Below, in pieces: positions 14,531-53,957 of a stretch of DNA of 64,000 bases. The notes beneath the pieces are model-generated. The model worked only from the letters and a program-made list of their open reading frames with translations, had not been told where the DNA came from and did not search any database. Each line of letters opens with the position of its first letter. Within the stretch, counting starts at the first letter, position 1. The DNA comes from an uncultured Verrucomicrobiae bacterium. Its GTDB lineage: Bacteria > Verrucomicrobiota > Verrucomicrobiia > Palsa-1439. The DNA is taken from NCBI GenBank assembly GCA_963817685.1, contig CAWFPN010000010.1, positions 614,746 through 678,745 on the forward strand, written 5' to 3'. A program made the translations under genes and the position numbers.

Positions 14531-14968
14531 ATGTGTTACTCTACGGAGGCATGATATATGCAGAGGGCATACACCTAACGGCTGGAAAGGCGCGAACGCC
14601 GGGTGCGGTCACCCGGCCTACAGCCGAAATCAATGCGATCCGTGGATGTACAGCCCTTCGTGCTTTCGTGGTAAGGGACAGGGATTTAGCGCGAAAAGCG
14701 AACGGGACGACAGAGATCCCTCGACACGCTCGGGATGACGGCGTCAACGTCGCACAATCTGGCCCGGTCAAGCCTAGTCAAACCAAGTCCGACCTAGTCA
14801 AACCTAGTCCAACCATAAATTCTCCCATCGGACCGCCCATCCGTGTAATCCGTGGAAGAAATCCAGCCATTCGTGCCCATTCGTGTGCATTCGTGGCTGC
14901 CTCCATCTGCGTGCATCTGTGTGGATCTGTGGCTCAATACGGCCTAATACGACCTAATACGGCCTTAA
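14531..14968 (+). repeat. Mosaic (BIME/MITE-like) repeat, copy A
   Basis: The left ~115 bp and right ~200 bp arms are nearly identical to the inverted copy at 23425-23883; the middle differs. Confidence 0.9.
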
Positions 14969-23424: not shown

Positions 23425-23883
23425 TTAAGGCCGTATTAGGTCGTATTAGGCCGTATTGGGCCACAGATGCACACCGATGCACGCAGATGGAGGCAGCCAC
23501 GAATGCACACGAATCGGCACGAATGGCGGGATTTCTTCCACGGATTACACGGATGGGCGGTCCGATGGGAAAATTTAAGGTTGGACTAGGTTTGACTAGG
23601 TGCGACTTGGTTTGACTAGGCTTGTCCGCCGAAGCTTTGGCGAAGGCGGATTGGGCTTCCGGGCAGCGGATTTTGACCACAGAGGCATGGAGTTGGGGGG
23701 GCGAGGCTCCAGCCGAGCCGCACCGTTTTTTCACCACGAAGGTACGAAGATCACGAAGGGCTGTACATCCACGGATCGCATTGATTCCGCCTGTAGGCCG
23801 GGTGACCCCACCCGGCGTTCGCGCCTTTCCAGCCCCCAAGCCTATGCCCTCTGCATATACCATGCTGCCGCACAGTAGCACAT
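23425..23883 (-). repeat. Mosaic (BIME/MITE-like) repeat, copy B
   Basis: Inverted near-copy of 14531-14968. Its middle carries a GGCGAGGCTCC REP half and TCCGCCTTCGCCAAAGCTTCGGCGGA instead. Confidence 0.9.
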
Positions 23884-27947: not shown

Positions 27948-29732
27948 ATGAAAACTTTTGGCCGCTGGACGATTGCCTGTCTGGCCGCGCTGGCCTTCTT
28001 CGCGCCGTTGAAATTCGGCACGCCGGTGGTCACGCAGGCCCTGATGTTCGTGCCGATGGACGCCCTGGAATGGGTGCTGGAACCGTGGCCGAACCAGATC
28101 GCTTTTGTGTTCATCCTCGTCGCGCTGTTGTGGCTGGTGCTGGATGCGGAGCGGTTGACGGCGCGAGTGGATTTCCTGTTCCTGCTGCCGCTGCTGTTCC
28201 TGGCGACCCAGGCGTTACCGACTCTGTACTCGATCAACCGCCAGGTGTCGGTCGATACGCTGGTCTATTTCGCCTGCTGCGTGCTGCTGTTTTACACCGT
28301 GGCCTGGTACGTGCGCGACGGCGCGACGGCGGTGGCGATCTTCAGCGGGCTGGGGCTGGCGACGATGCTGGTCTGTGTGGCGGCGTTGCGGCAGTATTTC
28401 GGCGGGCTGGAGGAGACCCGGCAGTTTGCCGCGGCCTACATCGACACCACGGAAGCGCCGAAGGATTTCCTGCTGCGCATGAGCAGCAACCGGCCGTTTG
28501 CCTGGTTTGGCGGGTATCCCAACGCGCTGGCCGGGTTCCTGGTGATCGCGTTTGCGCCGACGCTGGCGTGGATTTCCGTGCGGAGCAGGGGGTGGGACAC
28601 GCGCGTGAGACGGCCGACGCTGGTGCTGGCGGGCTGCCTGATGGGGTTCTGCCTGATCCTCACCGGTTCCCGTGGCGGCTACATCGCGTTCGCCGTAATG
28701 ATCGTCACCGCGCTGCTGTGCGCAATTCCCTCCGGCGCGCGGCGCAACATGACGATTGGGGCCGCGCTGGCGTTGCTGGGCACAATCCTTTTCATTGCCC
28801 ACCGGGGCGGCGTGATCTCGGCGGGGACGTCCAGCATGGAAGCCAGGGGCGATTACTGGCGGGGGGCGATCGCCATCGTGCGCGACCACACCTGGCTGGG
28901 CACGGGACCGGGTACGTTTGGTTCGATCTACCCTAAATACAAGACGGCGCAGACGGAAGAAGCGCAGTTGGTCCATAATAACTTTCTCGAAATGTGGTCG
29001 GACTCCGGCCTGGCGGCCTTTGTCATCTTCGGGGTGTTGTGGGTGGTGGCGCTCAAGGACAGTTTCCGCCTGATCAGCCAGCGCCGGGGCGACGCGGCGG
29101 CCATTGCGGTTTGCGCGGCGCTGACGGGCTGGGTGGTGCATGCGCTGGTCGATTTCGATCTGTATGTGCCGGGGGTGGCTTTCCCCGCGTTCCTGCTGCT
29201 GGGCATCCTGCAGGGGTTGAAGGAGCTGCCGAGCGTCAAGCCGGTCGCCGAACGCGACAGGGGCCACCGGGTGATCGGCACCCTCTGCGCCGCTGTGGCG
29301 GGCGTGGTGATTTGGATGGAAGGCGCATCGCTCTGGGCAACCTATCGGCATGACCAGGCATATGCGTTGATGCATGCCAATCCGTTGGGGGCGTTGGATG
29401 AAGCGCGGCACGCCACCCGTCTGGCGCCGTTTAATGCGCCCTACCAGGCCACTGCGGGCGATCTGGCGGTGCGGTTGCGGCTGTTCGACGAAGCGGCGGA
29501 ACATTATCGGGCCGCCATCGAGGACGACCCGTACCGCGCCTCTTATCATTGGCGGCTGGCCCGGGCCGAGATGGCGGCGCGCGGTCCGGACGCGATTGCT
29601 TTGCAGCAATTGCGGCTGGCAACGTCGCTCAACCCCACAAATAAGCGCTATAGCCAGGAGCTGGCCGATGCCGAGGAAAGCGTTAGACAATCCCCCGGCG
29701 GTTTGCTAGAGTCTGCCCCTGCCAAGGAATAA
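27948..29732 (+). CDS. O-antigen ligase family membrane protein with C-terminal TPR
   Basis: YPNALAGFL, LTGSRGG, R.DYW..A, GTGPGTF, HNNFLE. Confidence 0.85.
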   Translation: MKTFGRWTIACLAALAFFAPLKFGTPVVTQALMFVPMDALEWVLEPWPNQIAFVFILVALLWLVLDAERLTARVDFLFLLPLLFLATQALPTLYSINRQVSVDTLVYFACCVLLFYTVAWYVRDGATAVAIFSGLGLATMLVCVAALRQYFGGLEETRQFAAAYIDTTEAPKDFLLRMSSNRPFAWFGGYPNALAGFLVIAFAPTLAWISVRSRGWDTRVRRPTLVLAGCLMGFCLILTGSRGGYIAFAVMIVTALLCAIPSGARRNMTIGAALALLGTILFIAHRGGVISAGTSSMEARGDYWRGAIAIVRDHTWLGTGPGTFGSIYPKYKTAQTEEAQLVHNNFLEMWSDSGLAAFVIFGVLWVVALKDSFRLISQRRGDAAAIAVCAALTGWVVHALVDFDLYVPGVAFPAFLLLGILQGLKELPSVKPVAERDRGHRVIGTLCAAVAGVVIWMEGASLWATYRHDQAYALMHANPLGALDEARHATRLAPFNAPYQATAGDLAVRLRLFDEAAEHYRAAIEDDPYRASYHWRLARAEMAARGPDAIALQQLRLATSLNPTNKRYSQELADAEESVRQSPGGLLESAPAKE

Positions 29733-45215: not shown

Positions 45216-46310
45216 ATGGAATACCTTCACAGCCTCCTCAAATTCGCCGTCAACATGTCCGCCTCGGACATCCACATCAAAGCGGGCCACAACGCCACCA
45301 TCCGCATCGCCAGCGAGCTGTTCCCCGTCCAGGTCGATCCGCCCAGCATCGAACAGGTCCAGGAAATCGTCCGCCTGATGCTGCCGCGCCACCTCGAATC
45401 CCGCCTGGAACGGGAAAAAGAAGTCGATTTCTCCTACATCCACGAATCCCTCGGCCGCTACCGGGTGAACGTCTACCACCAGCGCGGCGAACTCTGCATC
45501 GCCATGCGCTTCGTGAAAGCCAATATCCCGTCGTTCACCGAACTGCACCTGCCCGATCAACTCGCCAAGATCGCCACCGCCGAGCGCGGCGTGATCCTGG
45601 TCTGCGGGTCCACCGGCTCGGGCAAATCCAGCACGCTGGCCGCGATGATCGAGCACATCAATCTCAACGAGAAATGCCATATCATCACCCTCGAAGACCC
45701 CATCGAGTACGTCTTCCAGGACAAACAATCCGTCATCGAACAGCGCGAAGTCGGCCTCGACACACTGAGCTTCGAGCGCGCGCTGGTCCACGTCATGCGC
45801 CAGGACCCCGACGTGATCATGATCGGTGAAATGCGCGACAGCCAGTCGTTCATGGCCGCGCTGACGGCAGCCGACACGGGGCATCTGGTGCTGACGACCC
45901 TGCACACGACGACCGCCTACACGGCCGTCGGCCGCATCCTCGATTTCTTCCCGTCCCACGAACGCGACCAGATCCGCCACCAGCTCGCGGCCAACATCAA
46001 GGCCGTGATTTGCCAGCGGCTCGTGCCCGCGATTGCCGGCGGCGTCGTCCCGGCCGTGGAAATCATGCTCAACACCCCGACCGTGCGCAAGATGCTCGAA
46101 GAAAATCACATGGACAAACTGCAAGCCGCCATCGAGACCGGCACCGAAGACGGCATGCAAACGTTCAACCAGGCCCTGTTCAAGCTCGTCAAAGCCAAGA
46201 TGGTGACCGAAGAAGCCGCCCTGGCCTGCGCGAGCAACCCCGACGCCCTGCGCATGAACCTGCGCGGCATCTTCCTCGACGAATCCAGACGCATCCTGGC
46301 GTCTGCGTAG
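45216..46310 (+). CDS. pilT: Type IV pilus retraction ATPase (PilT/PilU family)
   Basis: SDIHI, RYRVNVY, GSTGSGKSSTLAAMI, TLEDPIE, RQDPDVIMIGEMRD, GMQTF. Confidence 0.9.
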   Translation: MEYLHSLLKFAVNMSASDIHIKAGHNATIRIASELFPVQVDPPSIEQVQEIVRLMLPRHLESRLEREKEVDFSYIHESLGRYRVNVYHQRGELCIAMRFVKANIPSFTELHLPDQLAKIATAERGVILVCGSTGSGKSSTLAAMIEHINLNEKCHIITLEDPIEYVFQDKQSVIEQREVGLDTLSFERALVHVMRQDPDVIMIGEMRDSQSFMAALTAADTGHLVLTTLHTTTAYTAVGRILDFFPSHERDQIRHQLAANIKAVICQRLVPAIAGGVVPAVEIMLNTPTVRKMLEENHMDKLQAAIETGTEDGMQTFNQALFKLVKAKMVTEEAALACASNPDALRMNLRGIFLDESRRILASA

Positions 46311-46351
46311 TGGGTAGTGGTGAGTGGATAGTGGCGAGTGAGGACTGGGAA
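46310..46351 (+). repeat. Heptamer array A (G-rich on +)
   Basis: GTGGGTA GTGGTGA GTGGATA GTGGCGA GTGAGGA CTGGGAA; begins on the last base of the pilT stop. Confidence 0.85.
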
Positions 46352-46370
46352 ATCAGCCGAGCTTCTGCGA

Positions 46371-46736
46371 CTAAGCGCTCTTTTTCAGTGATTTTCTCAG
46401 GCCGCTTAGCATTCGGCTAATTTCATCGCACATTTTTTCCAGTTCCCTGACTTGCGCGGTGGGGAGATAGCCCAGTCGTTCGGCCAGCACCAGTTGGGTC
46501 TCCAGTTCCGCCAACGAACCCCGCGCTGTGCTTAGAAATTGCAGAAATTCTCCCGTGCCTTCGCGCGCTGCCCCCTCGGCGATGTTGCTGGGGACGGACA
46601 CAGCCGCCCTGCGCATCTGCGACGTGAGGCCGTAGCTTTCCTCTTTCGGAAACCGTTTGGAAACGGCGTAGATCCGCTCCGCCAGTTCGATGGATTTCTG
46701 CCAGACGACCAACTCCCGATAGCTCTCCACGGTCAC
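46371..46736 (-). CDS. Four-helix-bundle protein (TIGR02436 / IVS-encoded / Avd-like)
   Basis: SYRELVVWQKS, FPKEESYGLTSQMRRAAVSVPSNIAEG, ARGSLAELETQL. Confidence 0.93.
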   Translation of the reverse strand: MTVESYRELVVWQKSIELAERIYAVSKRFPKEESYGLTSQMRRAAVSVPSNIAEGAAREGTGEFLQFLSTARGSLAELETQLVLAERLGYLPTAQVRELEKMCDEISRMLSGLRKSLKKSA

Positions 46737-46758
46737 GGGGGAAAGAATAGCGGAAGGA

Positions 46759-46807
46759 GTGGGTAGTGGCGAGTGGATAGTGGGGAGTTGGCGGAGGGAA
46801 GTGGAAA
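46759..46807 (+). repeat. Heptamer array B (G-rich on +)
   Basis: GTGGGTA GTGGCGA GTGGATA GTGGGGA GTTGGCG GAGGGAA GTGGAAA. Confidence 0.85.
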
Positions 46808-46862
46808 ACTACGGGAACTCAACGGTTCGAAGATTTTCTCCGGCGCGGCGTCTTTCGACTGA

Positions 46863-46890
46863 TCACTAGCCACTGCCCACTCGCCACTAC
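46863..46890 (+). repeat. Heptamer array C (C-rich on +, inverted relative to B)
   Basis: TCACTAG CCACTGC CCACTCG CCACTAC; contains a 14-nt exact complement of 46763-46776. Confidence 0.8.
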
Positions 46891-46965
46891 TTTGCGGAAC
46901 CGCTCCGCGAAAGCCGGGCCCTTCATCTGCTCCTGCAGATACGCATCGAAATTGGTCTTTTTCAT
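46891..46965 (-). pseudogene. N-terminal fragment of an HTH/XRE antitoxin-like gene
   Basis: MKKTNFDAYLQEQMKGPAFAERFRK resembles the N-terminus of HigA-like HTH proteins; the frame runs straight into array C. Confidence 0.5.
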
Positions 46966-47141
46966 TCCTACGTTCGCTCCGCTGCAACAAAGAAGAATTC
47001 TATTCGTAACTACAAGTTCAGGAAACACCGATTTTGGCGTACGATGCGATAATCTGGCTGCCTATATTGCACGCTGTGATCGACCAGTGCGGTGTCGAGA
47101 GTTGAGCTCGAACGATAACGCGCTGCCCCCTACACGTCCGA

Positions 47142-48464
47142 TTATGACTCAGAGCGGTCAGTTTGCGCTGTGCGCCCTCTCGCGAAGTAATCTCGCAGTG
47201 CGCGGTTCCATAAATCAACCACTGCCTCTCTAAACAGGTGATCTTGCGTCGCGGGCGGCAAGGCGTTTAACTTTGCAGATACGTCTTGCGGCAGCTTACC
47301 TTCGCTGACGAATCGATTTAGTGCACCAGTCCGGTCTTTCCTCCTAAAGATCACCAGAATGAACCGAGCAATGAACCAATCCTCCGCAATCTCAGGTATG
47401 GGACGCTCAGCCAAATAACGCACCCTGTAGGCTTCATACCCAAATTTGCTTGTCCTGACCTCCACTACTTCAGCGAGATCGTGGCCGGCTAAAACAAAAT
47501 CGCCTACGGTCGCTCGCCCGCCAACGAGTCTTTCGCAAAACTGTATATGCTCTCTGTCGGATTCGTAATACTGCCGGACTTGGGCATTAACGCCGTCAGG
47601 TGCAAGACCGGTCAACTGCTGGCTTAGAACAAGTACTCGCAGGCCAAGTACGCCACAGTGGCCGATGCCTCTCTCAACGGTCCTTAGATCGTAATCCTTT
47701 GTCAGAGACGAAGGGTCAAAGTGAAGGTCTCGACTGGTTGTCGAAAAGAACTGCCTATAGCTAAATCCCATAGCCAACTTGTCCGCTTCTGTGGCAATTC
47801 GTAGTGCGTTGTGTAATCGGCTGTAAACACTGGCAAAAATCCGACCCGGCTTGAGCGAGCGCTCGATAGTCGGTCGTTTGTCTTTGAGGTACCAGCATTT
47901 CGAAATATCAAAGCCTGCGGCTTCAAGCCGACCAATCTCGCTGAGTAGACGACTGACGCTGTACTCAGCGTTATGACTTCTGCATGAATAAAACGCCTCT
48001 AGATCCTCTTGCAGTGAAAGAAAATAATCCAAATCAGCCAAGAGCAACAGATGTCGATAGTAGGCGTCTTCATTTGTCTGGCGAAACGAAATCAGATTCA
48101 CCAGCACCTCTAACAACTTGCGGCTCCACATACTTTGCTGATCTGCCATTGACTCAATGACCACGCGGTCTAGTTGACTTGACTTGCTAAATTTCTTCTC
48201 ATCGTCTGGTGAGCTGAGAAACTCTTGCCATCCCAAAATAGCAACGCCAACCTTTTGTACTTCGTCCAGCACCTGATAAACATAGTAGGCGCGGGCGTCA
48301 GGGTGTGAAGACCCAACCACCATGCGAAAGCTTGCTTCGTCAACACCGAGCGCTTGCCGCAAATCGTGCGCCCCCCTGGTCGTCGCAAAGCTGAAGAACT
48401 CCCAGCGTTTCTGCTTCTCTTCAAAGGTTTCGCGTTCAGTAATTGGAGGCACGCCTGTATTCAT
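47142..48464 (-). CDS. Hypothetical protein (440 aa), low GC
   Basis: Long uninterrupted ORF at roughly 50% GC; no family recognised. Confidence 0.75.
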   Translation of the reverse strand: MNTGVPPITERETFEEKQKRWEFFSFATTRGAHDLRQALGVDEASFRMVVGSSHPDARAYYVYQVLDEVQKVGVAILGWQEFLSSPDDEKKFSKSSQLDRVVIESMADQQSMWSRKLLEVLVNLISFRQTNEDAYYRHLLLLADLDYFLSLQEDLEAFYSCRSHNAEYSVSRLLSEIGRLEAAGFDISKCWYLKDKRPTIERSLKPGRIFASVYSRLHNALRIATEADKLAMGFSYRQFFSTTSRDLHFDPSSLTKDYDLRTVERGIGHCGVLGLRVLVLSQQLTGLAPDGVNAQVRQYYESDREHIQFCERLVGGRATVGDFVLAGHDLAEVVEVRTSKFGYEAYRVRYLAERPIPEIAEDWFIARFILVIFRRKDRTGALNRFVSEGKLPQDVSAKLNALPPATQDHLFREAVVDLWNRALRDYFARGRTAQTDRSES

Positions 48465-48575
48465 CACAAATTCGCTACTCGCGCAGAGCATGGTATGCAA
48501 GGGTATTGGGCTGGGGCAAGGAGAAAGGGCGAGGGACGAGGATTGACGTGATGGAGAGGCGGGCTATTCCAATAG

Positions 48576-48674
48576 GCACTACCCACTGACCACTATTTTA
48601 TCATTCCCCACTAGTCACTAGCCACTACTTCTCCACTCCCCACTAGCCACTAGCCACTCACCACTACCCACTGC
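48576..48674 (+). repeat. Heptamer array D (C-rich on +)
   Basis: About 12 units such as CCACTAG, CCACTAC, CCACTCC, CCACTCA and CCACTGC in three blocks. Confidence 0.88.
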
Positions 48675-48692
48675 CCCTCAGGGGGTTTGGTC

Positions 48693-48721
48693 TTGCAATT
48701 TGAATTGTTGTTTTTTAGAAT
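48693..48721 (+). promoter_or_regulatory. Putative promoter of the secreted repeat protein
   Basis: TTGCAA-17 nt-TAGAAT. Confidence 0.6.
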
Positions 48722-48830
48722 GCGGGGGTCATTCCGAACGTGCGGGAGATGCGCGAGTTCTCCGCGGTGGTAGGAAAGGTTCATGAAGACCGGGATTCCA
48801 GACGATCCCTCAGCATTTCAAAGCGGGGCA

Positions 48831-50480
48831 ATGCGGGCTGGTGCTGTCCTCGCCTTTGTGCTTTGTTTTTTTCTGTTTGCAGCGCCCGCCCGGGCGCAGT
48901 TCACGGCGAACAACCAGACCAATGTCCTCAATGGTGCCGCCCTCGACTGGGTACCCGTTGCTGAGAGCTACATCGTAGGCGACACGGAGTCGTACGATGC
49001 GCTGATTATCGAAAACGGCGGTGTGTTGTCCAATTCGTTCGGTGTCATCGGGAACCAGGCGGGGGCCAACGGTAATGCGGTCATTGTCTCGGGCACGGGA
49101 TCGGTCTGGAGTAATCTCGATGATCTCACCGTGGGCAACAGCGGCGCGGGCAATCAGTTGGTCGTCACCAACGGCGGCGCGGTTTTCGCGACCGATACCT
49201 ACCAGGGGGACTCGGGCAACAATAACGCCATTCTCGTCTCGGGCACGGGCTCGGTTTGGAACACGACGTTGGGCTTCTACGTCGGTTTGAATGGCAGCGG
49301 CAACTCGTTGGCGATCAGCAACGGTGGCGCTGTTTACGACGGTTACGGCCACCTTGGCGACCAGCCTTCCAGCGCCGGGAATGCGGCGTTGGTCATCGGC
49401 AGCGGGTCGGTATGGAGCAATGGTTCTCTGCTGGTTGGCAGGTTTGGCTCCGGCAATGTGCTCACCATCACCAACGGCGGTACCGTCATCTCGGCATTTG
49501 TAGCTCTGGGTTTTTGGCCGTCCGGCTGCAGCAATTTGGTGACTGTTGCCGGAAATGGCGCGGCCTGGTATGTCAATGCCCTCAACGTCGGATTTCCGGG
49601 CAGCAGCAATCAGGTCGTGGTTGGTCCGGGTGGCGCGGTGATTGCCAACGCGGCACAGATTGGTGACAGTGACCCATCCGTCGGCATCGCCACCAATAAC
49701 GTCATTCGGGTGAACGGCGGCACCTTGATCGTGACGAATGGCGGCGGCGGCACGTTGGTCGTCAGTCCCGGCGGTGGCTCCGACAGCTTGATTCTCAACG
49801 GCGGCACAGTGACGGTGGACGGTCTCGTCGCCACCAACGGCGTGAATAGCATCGTCACCTTCAATGCCGGGGTGTTGAATTCGGCCTCGACGTTCGTTAC
49901 CAATGGCCAGTTGTTCGTTGTCGGCGACGGCTTCGACTCGTCCACGTTTAATCTGTTGGGCGGTGTGCATTCGTTCGCCAACAACCTGGAGATTCGCTCC
50001 AATGCATTCCTCACCGGCTGCGGCACGATCAACGGCAATGTGGTCGTCGATCAGGGGGGCACGGTCCTGGCCAATTGCGGGACGCTGACGTTCACGGGTA
50101 TTCTGACCAACAACGGCTCGCTGTGGACGACAGCCGGCAGTGTTCTCGAAGCCTACGGGCCGGTCATCAACAACGGCGTCATCTACCTCCTCGACGGCGG
50201 TTCGACGAATTTCCATTCCGGCTTCGTCAACAGCGGCCTCGTCATCACCACAAACGACATCCCCGTCATCACCGCCATTCAGGTGGCGGGCTCAAACGTG
50301 CAGATCAGCGTCAGAACAAGCAACGGCGTCCGCTATCTGCTGGAAGAGACAACGAATCTGGTGACTTGGACGCTCGCACCCGGTTTCTTTGGCAACGGCG
50401 GCATCAAAACTCTCATCGATACGAACGCCGCCTCGCTGCCACAGCGATTCTACCGAGTTGGTTTGGCCGTGCCGCAGTAG
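48831..50480 (+). CDS. Secreted beta-helix repeat protein (T5SS/PEP-CTERM-associated repeat type) with a C-terminal RFYRV domain
   Basis: Signal peptide ending ARA; repeats of GNxVxVSGTGSVWxxxxxLxVGxxG; C-terminus TNLVTW...DTNA...RFYRV. Alternative start at 48783. Confidence 0.75.
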   Translation: MRAGAVLAFVLCFFLFAAPARAQFTANNQTNVLNGAALDWVPVAESYIVGDTESYDALIIENGGVLSNSFGVIGNQAGANGNAVIVSGTGSVWSNLDDLTVGNSGAGNQLVVTNGGAVFATDTYQGDSGNNNAILVSGTGSVWNTTLGFYVGLNGSGNSLAISNGGAVYDGYGHLGDQPSSAGNAALVIGSGSVWSNGSLLVGRFGSGNVLTITNGGTVISAFVALGFWPSGCSNLVTVAGNGAAWYVNALNVGFPGSSNQVVVGPGGAVIANAAQIGDSDPSVGIATNNVIRVNGGTLIVTNGGGGTLVVSPGGGSDSLILNGGTVTVDGLVATNGVNSIVTFNAGVLNSASTFVTNGQLFVVGDGFDSSTFNLLGGVHSFANNLEIRSNAFLTGCGTINGNVVVDQGGTVLANCGTLTFTGILTNNGSLWTTAGSVLEAYGPVINNGVIYLLDGGSTNFHSGFVNSGLVITTNDIPVITAIQVAGSNVQISVRTSNGVRYLLEETTNLVTWTLAPGFFGNGGIKTLIDTNAASLPQRFYRVGLAVPQ

Positions 50481-50546
50481 ATTGGCGGAAGCCTCGCCTC
50501 CCCGATCTTTTCCGTGAATCTGTCGCACCCAGCACTCCATTTCTCC

Positions 50547-50581
50547 TCACTCCCCACTAGCCACCAGCCACTAGTCACTCC
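50547..50581 (+). repeat. Heptamer array E (C-rich on +)
   Basis: TCACTCC CCACTAG CCACCAG CCACTAG TCACTCC; overlaps the integrase stop codon. Confidence 0.8.
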
Positions 50582-51468
50582 ACCTTGAACGTCATGTGGG
50601 CCGCCATGGTTTTGGAGTCTTGGCGGCGGTGGTGGCCGTACATGCGCAGGAGGCGGACGCCGCCGTCGTTGTGGCCCATCCATTGGGCCAGCAGGGGGTA
50701 GTCGACGCCTTGCTGCAGGGCGGTGACGGCGAAGAAGTGGCGCAGGGTGCGGTTGTCCATGTGCGGGATGCGGGCGTTGCGGCAGGCGAGGAAGAAGTTG
50801 GTCTTGCAATCCTTCAATCGCAGGACGCGGTCTTCCGGTTTCAATCCGCGCCGCCTGGACTGGATCCAGAGCAGATGATCGCGCAGGTTGGGGAACAGGG
50901 GGAGATAGCGCTCACGGCGTTCGCGCGTGCCGCGTTGCAGGGTGGTGACGACGAAGTTGCCGCCATCGAAATCGATGTTGTTCCAGGTCAGTCCGGCGGC
51001 TTCATGACGGCGCAGGCCGCTGTAGGCGAAGAAGAGCAGGGATTCAAGCGTCGAACGATGGCTCCGGCCACGGGCGATGATGACCAGTTTGGTGAATTGT
51101 TCGGGGGTTGGGATGAACGCGTGAAACTTCAAGTCGATCTTGTGGCCGGCAATGGACGCGGCGGGGTTGACGGCGATCAGTCCTTTGCGTTGCGCGAGGT
51201 CGAGGACGCCTTTGAGCATGGACAGTTCGGCATTGGCCCGCGAAGCGATGACGTCCATCGAGCGGATGTTGAACCAGCGCCGGCAGGCCCTGGGCGTGAT
51301 GTCCCGCACGGGCGTGTCGGTCAGGCCGGTCCAGATGCGCTGGACCATCCGCAAACTGCTCCGGTAATACGTGCGCGTGGCCGGTTTGCATTTTTTGGCG
51401 GCCAGCACGGTCCGGGTGTAGCGGCGGGCCATCTCCCCGAAGGTCGCAGTGTTTGATGCAGCGTTCAT
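50575..51468 (-). mobile_element. Tyrosine recombinase/integrase (no N-terminal arm domain evident)
   Basis: NPA motif, YSGLRRHEA (Arg-I), RTLRHFFA (Arg-II), WMGH...RMYGH (His and catalytic Tyr). Confidence 0.9.
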
Positions 51469-51612
51469 ACACTATGCCTTATGCATACATCTGTGGCGCG
51501 TTGCAAGCCTTTTTTTAGACCGGCGGGCAGCGAGGGCGCGGTCCTGATCGCTCGTCACCGACCGCCTTCCACATATTTGCGCCGGCCACACTTGTGGCGT
51601 ATAGTTTGTTCC

Positions 51613-52545
51613 ATGAAAGACACCCCGCGACGGGAGTCTGATGAGCGGCGGCGTAGCGCGGCTCCCTTCCTTGTCTGCCTGGCGGGCGCGTGCAGCCGGA
51701 CGCTGCCGTACTATCGCGGGAAATGGAAAATCAGCGACCGAATGGTCCGGCCACGGCTGGCGAAGACGGACTGGACGGACGTGGTCAAACTGCGGTGCGG
51801 ACTGCGCATTGCCTGCGATCTGTTCGACGAAGTGGGGGAAAACATCTGGTGGCTCGGCGAACAGTATGAACGGGGCAATGTGGCGTTGTTGCGGTCGATG
51901 CTGAAGCCGGGCGACGTCTTTCTCGACGCGGGCGCCAACATCGGTTTGTTTACTCTGGTGGCGGCGCGGTTGGTGGGCCCCGAGGGGCTGGTCGTGGCGG
52001 TGGAACCGGTGGGCGCGTTGTTCCGTTCGCTCCAGAGAAGCGTTGCCGAGTTGAACCATCTCACCAATGTCGTCTGCGTGCAAGGGGCGCTTTCATCGTC
52101 CGCCGGCAAAGGTGTAATCCATATCGGCGCCGCGGACAATCTCGGTTCCTCTTCGCTGGAAAAACACGGCGGCCACGACGGCGAGAGCCAGCCTGTCGAT
52201 CTGTTGACTGTGGACGCTTTGGCGGCGCAACAGCCGCGCCTGAGTCGCGTCGCGGTCATGAAAATCGACACTGAAGGTCACGAGTTGAAAGTGCTGGAAG
52301 GGGCGCGGCACACGATGGAGTCCGCCAAACCTTCCGTCTTGATCGAGGTCCGGAACGAACTCCTGCACAGTGCCGGCAGCAGCAGCGAAGCTGTCTTCCA
52401 ATTCTTCGCTGAGTTGGGATACCGCTCGTTTCGCGTTCTGTCCTCCGGCCAGGTTGAACCGCTGGACGCTCCCGAGGAAGGCACTCTGATCCTCTTCGCG
52501 CATCGCGACCGGGCCGCTGCTGTGCCTTCCATCCGCGCCCGTTGA
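51613..52545 (+). CDS. FkbM-family methyltransferase
   Basis: FLDAGANIGLF, AVEP, MKIDTEGHELKVLEG. Confidence 0.9.
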   Translation: MKDTPRRESDERRRSAAPFLVCLAGACSRTLPYYRGKWKISDRMVRPRLAKTDWTDVVKLRCGLRIACDLFDEVGENIWWLGEQYERGNVALLRSMLKPGDVFLDAGANIGLFTLVAARLVGPEGLVVAVEPVGALFRSLQRSVAELNHLTNVVCVQGALSSSAGKGVIHIGAADNLGSSSLEKHGGHDGESQPVDLLTVDALAAQQPRLSRVAVMKIDTEGHELKVLEGARHTMESAKPSVLIEVRNELLHSAGSSSEAVFQFFAELGYRSFRVLSSGQVEPLDAPEEGTLILFAHRDRAAAVPSIRAR

Positions 52546-52571
52546 AACTCCCCCCGCCGGTCTGGTATACT
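52542..52571 (+). promoter_or_regulatory. Putative promoter of mnmE-mnmG
   Basis: TTGAAA-18 nt-TATACT with an extended TGn. Confidence 0.55.
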
Positions 52572-52595
52572 CGGCCGACGTTTGGCGAGTGACTC

Positions 52596-53957
52596 ATGGA
52601 AGATACCATTGCCGCAATTTCCACACCCATCGGGGAAGGCGGGATTGCCATCGTGCGCCTGTCGGGGCCGCGCGCGACGGGGATCGCCGACGCGATCTAT
52701 CTCTCGCCGCGCGGCCGCGTGGCGGATTTTCCCTCGCACACGGTCCACTTCGGGACGATCGGCCAAAACGGGGAGATGATCGACCAGGTCATGCTCACCG
52801 TCATGCGCGCGCCGAAGACTTATACGGCGGAGGACGTCGTCGAGATCAATTGTCACGGCGGGTTGCTGACGGCAAAGAACATTCTCGCCCAATGCCTGAA
52901 GAACGGCGCCCGGCTCGCCGAGCCGGGAGAATTCACGAAACGGGCGTTTCTCAATGGGCGCATCGATCTGACCCAGGCCGAGGCGGTGATGGATCTGATT
53001 GGGGCGAAGACAAACCGCGCCCATACGGCTGCTGTCCACGCGTTGGAGGGACATCTTTCCAAACGGTTGGACGAGGCGCGGGAACGGCTGATCACCGTGC
53101 TGGCCCACATCGAGGCCACCATCGATTTCCCGGAAGATGATCTTGCGGCTGATACCAGGGAGAAATGGCTCACTGACACGACCGCGATCATGGCGTTCCT
53201 GAATCAGCTCCTGGCGACGGCCCAGGAAGGCCGGATCTTGCGCCAGGGCATTGCCGTCGCCATCATTGGCCGGCCTAACGCGGGCAAATCCAGCCTGATG
53301 AATGCCCTGCTCGGCCAGGACCGTTCCATCGTGACTCCCGTTGCCGGTACGACACGCGACACAATCGAAGAAACTGCCAATATCCGCGGTATCCCCATCC
53401 GTCTGACTGATACCGCCGGCATTAGAAAGCCTCGCGGAACGGTCGAACATCACGGTATAAATCGCAGTCGCAAGAGCCTTGCTACTAGCGACTTGATACT
53501 CCACGTACTGGACGGTTCTCGTGCCTTTTCGAAGACTGATTTAGAGCTTTCGGCGCTTTATGAAGGTAAGCCGGCGGTCCAGGTACTTAATAAACACGAT
53601 TTGCCACGAAAACTCGTTCTGCCTGCTGCATTCCCGAAATGTGAGTCGGTCGGTGTCTCGTCCCTGCGCGGGGACGGGATTGAGCAGTTGAAGGACAAGA
53701 TCGAGGCCATAGCGTGGTCAGGCCGCGTTGGATCGGCTGATGTGGACGTTGCCATCAACGAGCGACAGGCCGATGCGATCCAGCGTTCATTAAATTCATT
53801 GACAACTACCACTGCTACAATGAATGCTAAAGCCAGCCAGGAGATTATCTCTCAGGAATTGCGGATTGCGCTGGATGCGATCGGCGAGATCGTTGGGAAG
53901 ACGGCGACTGAAGACATCCTGGCAAAGATTTTCAGCACATTCTGTATTGGGAAGTAA
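52596..53957 (+). CDS. mnmE: tRNA modification GTPase MnmE
   Basis: [39 protein letters not shown]-terminal FCIGK. Confidence 0.97.

Follow-up and report, generated by a model that had tools for sequence, protein, structure and literature searches.

The closest described system to the one analyzed here is the intervening sequence (IVS) of 23S rRNA that bears an open reading frame (ORF), as in Coxiella burnetii, where the IVS carries S23p, and also in Leptospira (Warrier et al. 2016, PMC4990558). We analyzed a stretch of 64,000 nucleotides (nt), hereafter the window, from an uncultured Verrucomicrobiae bacterium (GenBank assembly GCA_963817685.1, contig CAWFPN010000010.1), in which arrays of the heptamer CCACTAS, named A to E, stand at the gene boundaries between pilT and the gene of a small tyrosine recombinase (the integrase), around a four-helix-bundle (4HB) gene of the PF05635 family, an orphan gene and a gene for a secreted repeat protein (Table 1). 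As in the ORF-bearing IVS, the PF05635 gene lies inside a long stem of inverted tandem-heptamer arms, here formed by the pairing of C with A, and inverted heptamer arms 340 to 570 nt apart surround 19 of 22 4HB homologs in order-level relatives, each cassette with its own unit. Unlike the IVS, the cassette is not in rRNA, is inserted at the stop codon of a protein-coding gene and has an extra inner arm, B; moreover, gene-less arrays of the same unit, which is found at about 17 loci, bound unrelated genes. The arrays are real joints between modules of different origin, and comparison with the nearest relative indicates that modules adjoining them have been inverted, added and replaced since the two lineages split. 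We favor a reading, on which taken as a whole our confidence is evenly divided, in which the arm repeats of 4HB cassettes serve as passive joints and preferred break-and-join points in a mosaic accessory island.

The short tandemly repeated repetitive (STRR) sequences of cyanobacteria are a family of heptamer direct repeats. In the published accounts of TAACTGA in Beggiatoaceae and also in cyanobacteria (PMC4679880), and of the heptanucleotide elements of Geobacter metallireducens (PMC2700814), 4HB genes are not mentioned and no link to a recombinase is reported; an integrase is unmentioned in PMC2700814, and recombination is mentioned once, in passing, in PMC4679880. The arrays described here resemble such families in forming short intergenic runs of 2 to 6 copies, many per genome, with no known function and in some cases abutting coding regions, but differ in being tied to a 4HB cassette, to the joints of island modules and to a fixed position in a larger composite repeat. 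What is new is that arrays of one unit bound unrelated, separately acquired genes, that comparative evidence points to array-bounded modules inverted, added or replaced between close relatives, and that a small clade of recombinases is found repeatedly against such arrays or cassettes. We know of no function assigned to heptamer tandem repeats or to the large PF05635 family, both of which are widespread. If the arrays act as recombination or insulation joints, they would give bacteria an easy and widely applicable means of placing foreign genes between essential ones without creating fusion proteins.

Table 1. Features of the pilT-mnmE interval and its flanks, in window coordinates
Feature	Position	Strand	Remarks
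pilT, type IV pilus retraction ATPase	45216..46310	+	PF00437, E = 7e-46; conserved left flank; TAG inside array A
Array A	46307-46348	-	six heptamer units, CCACT on the - strand; G-rich on +; outer arm of the 4HB cassette
4HB gene, 121 amino acids (aa), 23S-rRNA-IVS protein/Avd-like family	46371..46736	-	PF05635, E = 2.7e-43; TIGR02436, E = 1e-41
Array B	46756-46790	-	inner arm, 20 bp upstream of the 4HB start; G-rich on +
B-C loop	46791-46855	.	65 nt
Short ORF remnant (MKKTNFDAYLQEQMKGPAFAERF...)	46819..46955	-	reads into array C
Array C	46856-46890	+	five units, C-rich on +; complementary to A and B; left edge of the low-G+C block
Orphan gene, 440 aa	47142..48464	-	low G+C
Array D	48569-48674	+	three successive arrays (48569-48596, 48608-48628, 48633-48674); C-rich; polarity as in C and E
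Secreted repeat protein gene, 565 aa	48783..50480	+	signal peptide; TIGR04393 (T5SS/PEP-CTERM-associated repeats), E = 8e-26; C-terminal ...QRFYRV motif
Array E	50547-50581	+	five units, C-rich; contains the integrase stop codon
Integrase, small Xer-like tyrosine recombinase, 297 aa	50575..51468	-	PF00589, E = 3e-10; core-binding and catalytic domains
FkbM-family methyltransferase gene	51613..52545	+	TIGR01444, E = 7e-28; within the inserted DNA
mnmE	52542..53957	+	right flank; conserved promoter TCTGGTATACT; promoter-like site at 52542-52571

A preliminary description of the window had reported five CCACTAS arrays at gene boundaries between pilT and the integrase; the arrays and their orientations were confirmed, and there is an array at every such boundary. 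A search with the 13-mer CCACTASCCACTA, allowing up to 2 mismatches, gave 26 matches in the window, where 0.63 were expected, and 25 of them fell inside the five arrays; the only match outside, at 29037, looks like chance. That the unit occurs nowhere else holds for the window but not for the genome, in which there are 25 array segments. Array A had been said to start on the last base of the pilT stop codon and in fact covers the whole TAG (46308-46310), while E, said to overlap the integrase stop, indeed contains it (GTG GAG TGA). The outer arrays A and E are inverted as described, and the island runs past the integrase and includes the FkbM gene. The polarity of the arrays is fixed and their ends are conserved (TCACTAG ... 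GCCACTAC, or ...TAGTGGGGAG in the G orientation), with 3 to 6 units, mostly 4 to 6. A and B have a 33-nt core in common that differs at 2 positions, and the CCACTATCC unit occurs in no other array of the genome. Genome-wide, CTAG units often alternate with CCAG or CTGG variants, e.g., CCACTAGCCACCAGCCACTAG.

Arrays A, B and C are arms of the 4HB cassette, which has three features of an IVS-like hairpin cassette: the gene, the pairing arms and the recurrence of the design around homologs in related genomes. In rRNA IVS, RNase III in addition cuts the stem, and the element is lost from the transcript. In an RNA fold of the minus strand from 46295 to 46900, the minimum-free-energy structure pairs C with A around the entire 4HB ORF. 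Array B, the loop and array C form a strong hairpin whichever strand is folded, with free energies of -51.5 and -63.4 kcal/mol (z = -4.65 and -4.40), and none of 200 shuffled sequences folded as well. Arrays D (z = -1.2) and E (z = -0.5), folded singly, gave no significant structure. An oddity of the cassette is that its start-side array, B, is a near-identical direct copy of A, with the complementary arm C lying 65 nt further out. The same layout of G-arm, C-arm, gene and C-arm is seen elsewhere, at the unrelated locus L258, with a 4HB gene that is 88% identical, and thus belongs to the cassette and is not the footprint of an integration at the pilT site. For this reason, the A/B direct repeat was rejected as evidence of a Campbell-type integration.

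The 4HB gene is the sole canonical copy in the genome. Its product is 84 to 88% identical to the metagenome proteins P0016 and P0015, at most 72% identical to other proteins of metagenome contigs, 63 to 67% identical to ones that their sources assign to other phyla, and at most 51% identical to the products of 4HB genes of its own family. The 84 to 88% homologs have CCACT-type arms, and the two homologs at 66 to 70% that were tried, from other genomes, are without any arrays. In relatives, period-7 arrays were found beside the gene at 27 of 29 4HB loci (Tandem Repeats Finder). The caution in the preliminary description that short arrays often flank 4HB genes is borne out by this count; its corollary, that the link to the integrase may be coincidental, is weakened by the recurrence of that link at 4 of 6 loci of the close integrase clade. 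Contigs carrying array or 4HB elements are typically short, which fits assemblies breaking at arrays.

The locus as a whole is an insertion between two conserved genes. The stop codon of pilT and the start codon of mnmE are 48 to 300 bp apart in about 20 genomes of the family versus 6.3 kb here. The short spacer was read directly in one of them (G007), and the spacers of three others (G021, G015 and G023) carry the mnmE promoter motif, which in the window sits directly after the FkbM stop codon. The FkbM gene was not found in any of 44 other genomes of the family. The short spacers and the absence of FkbM from the relatives place the island between about 46311 and about 52555, with the integrase and FkbM genes included, and this comparison indicates that the whole pilT-mnmE interval, about 6.2 kb, is inserted DNA. 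The left flank is well conserved: PilT is 76 to 84% identical to its orthologs in 40 genomes of the family, and its C terminus (...RRILASA) is unchanged. A genome of the same genus (G013; 83% complete, 510 contigs) gave no matches to pilT, mnmE or FkbM, so the island is not comparable there. At the island ends, no att-type direct repeats were seen by eye and no tRNA target was found. An Rfam scan of 45900-52700 gave no match above noise, and PADLOC gave no match for any island protein.

The insert is heterogeneous inside. The block from C to D has a G+C content of 51.2%, versus 59 to 63% on either side, and the strands of the three cargo genes are mixed (-, -, +). The relative closest to this locus was recovered as L033/L034 and L259/L260, consensus contigs from the same two Joint Genome Institute samples, with nucleotide identities to the window of 93% for pilT, 87% for mnmE, 86% for FkbM and 83% for the integrase. 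L033 keeps the order mnmE-FkbM-integrase, with an array at the stop codon of the integrase gene (a 74% ortholog); beyond array E, the homology of L033/L034 covers 51 nt of array and is lost within 30 to 60 bp of E, where unrelated DNA takes over. In L259, the pilT stop codon lies inside a G-oriented array, followed by a 47-nt loop, a C-oriented array and the 4HB gene on the pilT strand; next come a G-oriented array holding the 4HB stop codon, an extra ORF of 59 codons (ORF59) and another G-oriented array; and finally, after a spacer of about 70 nt, a degenerate C-oriented array and a short gene end that matches window positions 46895-46920. Comparison of the two layouts showed that a 520-bp module that runs from a G-arm through the loop and a C-arm to the 4HB gene, 83% identical in L259 and the window, is inverted with respect to pilT, and that ORF59 with its array, the ORF lying between two G-oriented arrays (a3/a4), is an additional unit in L259. 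Window array B is orthologous to the L259 arm a2, with the CACTATCCACT unit common to both, and L259 has also kept the right half of the loop between B and C, array C itself and the gene that follows. The comparison of gene content between pilT and FkbM that had been proposed as a check on the arrays thus showed differences ending at, or within tens of bases of, arrays, with one breakpoint in the B-C loop and not in array C, and the events do not reduce to clean exchanges from one site to another. The proposal that the arrays are recombination junctions of cassettes is in part supported by these data, as the arrays are joints of separately acquired modules and the modules differ in the relative, but the same arrays are the usual arms of 4HB cassettes. 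No alternative contigs were seen within the samples, L259 agreeing with L260 and L033 with L034.

A scan of this genome (G000) and of its relatives for CCACTAS arrays, the other check that had been suggested, returned the 25 segments mentioned above and arrays in relatives as well. CCACT arrays are much commoner in this genome than in its relatives: overlapping matches to the pattern numbered 51 here, versus 1 for a control pattern, 6 in G013 and 16 in G001, where the variant is CCACTCA. About 12 of the 17 array loci of this genome are inside composite repeats, with no integrase nearby. The composite repeat is about 200 bp long and occurs in about 85 copies; where it has arrays, they are at a fixed position in it and without an inverted partner. 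It starts with AAATTTAAGG and three AGGCCGTATT decamers, has a swappable middle that consists of CCACTAG heptamers or of CACAGATGCA/CACGAATG decamers, and ends with AAATTTAAGG followed by about four AGGTTTGACT decamers, often with another repeat, GTCATCCCGAGCTTGTCGAGGGATCTCTG, after it. The 10-bp phasing of these elements suggests that they may be protein-binding platforms. Copies lie in the window at 14767-14965 and 23428-23624, inverted to each other, and elsewhere in the genome (e.g., G000:C1:42430-42619 and C7:199070-199259).

The stand-alone arrays adjoin accessory genes, namely, a patch with Vsr, HNH and IS110 genes by lpd, a second Vsr-like gene and an island on contig C29 with TIR, 4HB and integrase genes. 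In G013, an inverted pair of arrays brackets a hydrolase gene and a second gene. Stop codons are repeatedly contained in or touched by arrays: those of pilT (window and L259), of the integrase (window, L033 and L035), of a kinase-like gene on C13 and of the C29 glycosyltransferase, and further those of the hydrolase on G013:C252, of the 4HB gene in L259 and of a secreted protein in L258. Near the Vsr/HNH patch and lpd, an IS110-family transposase gene lies between two heptamer arrays of the same orientation (CACTCGCCACTAGTCAC...; G000:C3:412607-414143), and this element may have inserted into an array or may carry one. That two stand-alone arrays adjoin genes of Vsr-type mismatch endonucleases may be a coincidence.

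In the mechanism that we propose, the island would be a mosaic of an integrase-FkbM backbone and three modules, the 4HB cassette, the low-G+C defense-type gene and the secreted repeat protein gene. The CCACTAS arrays would be units of about 35 nt from a family of repeats whose usual place is in the inverted arms of PF05635 cassettes, with D and E as gene-less copies. Since a period of 7 is not divisible by 3 and CTAG is palindromic, each array would put a TAG stop codon in all six reading frames, and inverted pairs of arrays are predicted to form strong hairpins. With six-frame stops and hairpins, an array could abut or replace the stop codon of a neighboring gene harmlessly and could insulate a newly arrived gene, and the mutual similarity of the arrays would make them preferred points of breaking and joining. 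The integrase would most simply be the island's own, possibly aging, recombinase, whose neighborhood is shared with 4HB cassettes and whose action on the arrays is putative.

Several observations weigh against this reading. Within this genome the enrichment of arrays at stop codons is weak (4 of 25 arrays versus a background of 8.6%). The arrays of composite repeats are mostly solitary, with no hairpin partner, so the formation of hairpins would not be their only role. The identical runs common to the present arrays are only about 12 to 13 nt long, which is short for RecA-type recombination, so homologous exchange would be inefficient unless the arrays were formerly more alike. The window layout is not derivable from that of L259 by one simple inversion, and the island comparison has one close relative only. 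It is also not fully satisfying to leave the recurrent closeness of the integrase clade to arrays and 4HB genes as co-location only.

This last point bears on the model put forward in the preliminary description, in which the arrays would be the recombination sites of an integron-like cassette platform run by the adjacent recombinase. In the form considered here, single-gene units between arrays of one orientation would be captured, excised and inverted, and the 4HB protein might be an accessory factor. We consider this model rather unlikely. In the alignment, the window integrase has Arg-I (SGLRRHEA), Arg-II (LRHFF), His (GHND) and Tyr (RMYG), with only Arg-II listed as an invariant column and the lysine not assigned; it thus keeps these catalytic residues of a tyrosine recombinase and is predicted to be competent. 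It falls far below the cutoffs of the XerC, XerD and IntI models: the best NCBIfam match is XerC (46.8 bits versus a cutoff of 335), and the integron-integrase model TIGR02249 gives 26 bits versus a cutoff of 265, with only the last 59 residues (228-286) matching. A match to PF02899 (E = 6e-4) is below the Pfam cutoff (20.5 versus 22.3 bits), and the Pfam search revealed no arm-binding domain capable of reading tandem repeats.

The close clade of this integrase (at least 42% identical, 297 to 336 aa) occupies six independent loci, and arrays or 4HB genes are beside the integrase gene at four of them. The array at the integrase stop codon of the window is kept in the ortholog and recurs at an independent locus, L035, where it lies over the 3' end of the gene of a 55% homolog; in L004, an array lies 50 bp upstream of the integrase start. 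A 4HB gene or 16-mer array abuts the 3' end of the integrase gene in C29 and is about 1 kb from it in L032 and L050 (in L050 the array was seen and the 4HB gene is probable). Downstream of the C11 integrase gene, 1.3 kb of sequence is free of arrays and 4HB remnants, and an IS110 element adjoins; in L036, no array or 4HB gene is beside the integrase homolog. Among about 33 more distant homologs (30 to 37% identical), only 2 have any period-7 array within 1.5 kb. The clade itself appears to be small and lineage-bound: a single-protein scan of genome contigs for relatives gave nothing useful, and profile scans of metagenome and genome contigs returned almost only unrelated integrases, the closest new match being L050 (44%).

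Further observations speak for such a platform. Arrays of the same polarity bound each module (A/B the 4HB gene, C/D the low-G+C block, D/E the secreted protein gene and, in L259, a3/a4 ORF59), and the three arrays of D follow one another without cargo, as expected of empty sites. The cargo next to the arrays differs in the nearest relative and at the locus found in C29 and G013, and it is of the defense or toxin-antitoxin type, as in chromosomal integrons. In these respects the locus is like an integron, with a tyrosine recombinase that stays at a fixed chromosomal place, at the end of single-gene modules with repeated boundary sites, while the cargo changes between close relatives. Integrons have an IntI with a specific extra segment in its catalytic domain, attI and the promoter Pc ahead of intI, cassettes in one orientation and, at the 3' end of each cassette, an attC site (R''-L''...L'-R') that folds as a single-strand hairpin. 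Set against this, the mixed gene orientations and the lack of an evident common promoter are unlike an integron, and the arrays follow the integrase gene at its 3' end, where attI would precede it; no heptamer array was found in the 144 bp upstream of the integrase. The suggested analogy to attC did not hold. The enzyme is not an IntI, and the arrays repeat a heptamer in one direction where attC would be an imperfect palindrome with R and L boxes; they also lack the spacer and the inverted binding sites that known core sites have. Hairpins form here only from the B/C and A/C pairs, each made of two separate arrays and not of one attC site. Every structural test of integron membership was negative, and the resemblance is functional only.

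The idea that the adjacent recombinase acts on the arrays thus has the association at 4 of 6 clade loci in its favor, but genomes that lack the clade also commonly carry 4HB cassettes and CCACT arrays. No integrase homolog was found at E ≤ 1e-20 in G001-G006, and in G001 there are nevertheless four 4HB genes, with CCACTCA arrays spread over at least 7 contigs. The arrays in composite repeats, which lack an integrase nearby, also count against the platform, as do the changes in its presumed enzymes: of the two paralogs in this genome, that of C29 has Asn in place of the catalytic Tyr and that of C11 is without Arg-I, as is P0004. In addition, G-arm, C-arm, gene and C-arm travel as a unit to L258, and the A/B repeat is not a mark of integration. 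If the integrase did act on the arrays, an integron-like platform would have arisen a second time, independently.

It is unlikely, in our view, that the arrays are RNA- or DNA-level elements only (binding sites of a cognate protein such as the pentameric 4HB protein, with about five units per array, RNase III processing hairpins, or insulators of translation and transcription), found at gene boundaries merely through the tolerance of intergenic DNA, and that the nearby rearrangements are ordinary island turnover. Consistent with this explanation, polarity is fixed and ends are conserved, one canonical 4HB gene and one unit family dominate the genome, and most copies are at a fixed position in the composite element of about 200 bp, beside 10-bp-phased arrays. 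The stops in all six frames, and the right-hand breakpoint of L259 in the B-C loop instead of in array C, also fit. However, several independent differences end within tens of bases of arrays, and the G+C boundary coincides with C and D, which is more coincidence than tolerance alone predicts. The two 66 to 70% 4HB homologs without arrays further argue that a strict partnership of protein and repeat is not general.

A more specific proposal is that the lineage-specific clade of small Xer-like recombinases uses the heptamer arrays that flank PF05635 genes in bacteria at large as its sites, with the pentameric 4HB protein reading the arrays of about five units as an accessory factor; we regard it as distinctly improbable. 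If true, it would describe a new cassette platform and give a first function to the 4HB/IVS family, to bacterial heptamer repeats and to ORF-bearing intervening sequences.

In the R64 shufflon, the Rci recombinase acts on sfx repeats, and segments swap alternative 3' ends of pilV within a clone. The present locus is similar in having repeats in both orientations by a tyrosine recombinase and a type IV pilus gene, and one segment in both orientations, and it is dissimilar in that whole unrelated genes lie between the repeats. A shufflon-like switch, in which the recombinase would flip segments between opposed arrays (A or B versus C, D or E) and so change the genes expressed from fixed promoters, e.g., by pilT read-through, has the recombinase at the cluster end, the 4HB module facing either way with respect to pilT in two close relatives and a promoter-like site just inside D in its favor, but is very improbable, because the inversion is seen only between species-level relatives (83 to 93% nucleotide identity) and not within a population, is accompanied by other changes without a clean flip between two arrays, and involves segments with whole genes in mixed orientations instead of alternative gene ends, with no alternative contigs within samples.

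Returning to the mosaic island with passive joints, its composition is like that of integrase-marked defense and accessory islands at chromosomal hot spots, which are small and variable, with TIR, VapBC and restriction-modification-associated genes at one junction by an integrase. It is unlike them in that flanking att direct repeats and a tRNA target were not found and in that the internal joints are marked by one repeat family. The paralogous locus on C29 (G000:C29:15903-19164) was compared with one relative, G013:C229. On C29 the order is glycosyltransferase, a heptamer hairpin with a 20-nt loop, a TIR-domain gene, a long-type 4HB gene, the integrase paralog, CACAGATG decamers and LpxI. G013:C229 keeps the 4HB, integrase and LpxI genes and has VapBC where C29 has the TIR gene; between its 4HB and integrase genes, which abut in G000, there are a 16-mer array (CCACTCCAGCCCCCCA, three copies) and a TIM-barrel gene. 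The 4HB ORF of C29 has 222 aa and contains a run of decamer repeats, and upstream of it lies an inverted copy of its own 3' coding end. A sequence just upstream of the integrase start (CAT-A.CA.TATGC..T.ATGCAT.CAT) is conserved in the window (51469-51500) and in L004 (966-1010) and may be a promoter, an operator or a site. Its window version includes CATCTGTGG, a motif that is related to the CACAGATG decamers found in the composite repeat.

The gene calls of the preliminary description for pilT, the 4HB gene, the secreted repeat protein, the integrase and FkbM hold by profile matches. The label of antitoxin fragment for the short ORF remnant could not be confirmed, as it has no significant match in Pfam or NCBIfam. 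The 440-aa orphan had no Pfam match above the cutoff (DUF5677, E = 0.009, 16.6 versus 27.1 bits) and no match in NCBIfam or PADLOC, and a search of 5.8 billion proteins gave 9 matches, its own record and 8 homologs. One homolog directly follows the type I restriction-modification gene hsdR, a second adjoins the gene of an AAA_21 ATPase, and a third has an integrase and an ApeA HEPN protein as neighbors. From these contexts, the orphan is likely a defense-island gene of a rare family and a candidate new defense-associated gene. A promoter-like site (48693-48721) lies just after D, ahead of the secreted-protein gene.

The spacer between pilT and mnmE is also occupied in another genus, g15, of which ten genomes (G027-G030, G034, G036, G037, G039, G042 and G044) have unrelated insertions of 1.2 to 5.6 kb there, so this junction is a recurrent hot spot of insertion. 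These insertions were rejected as instances of the same system: the only one read, that of G029, is without arrays and without an integrase. Its genes encode a prolyl oligopeptidase, a cupin and a 316-aa protein.

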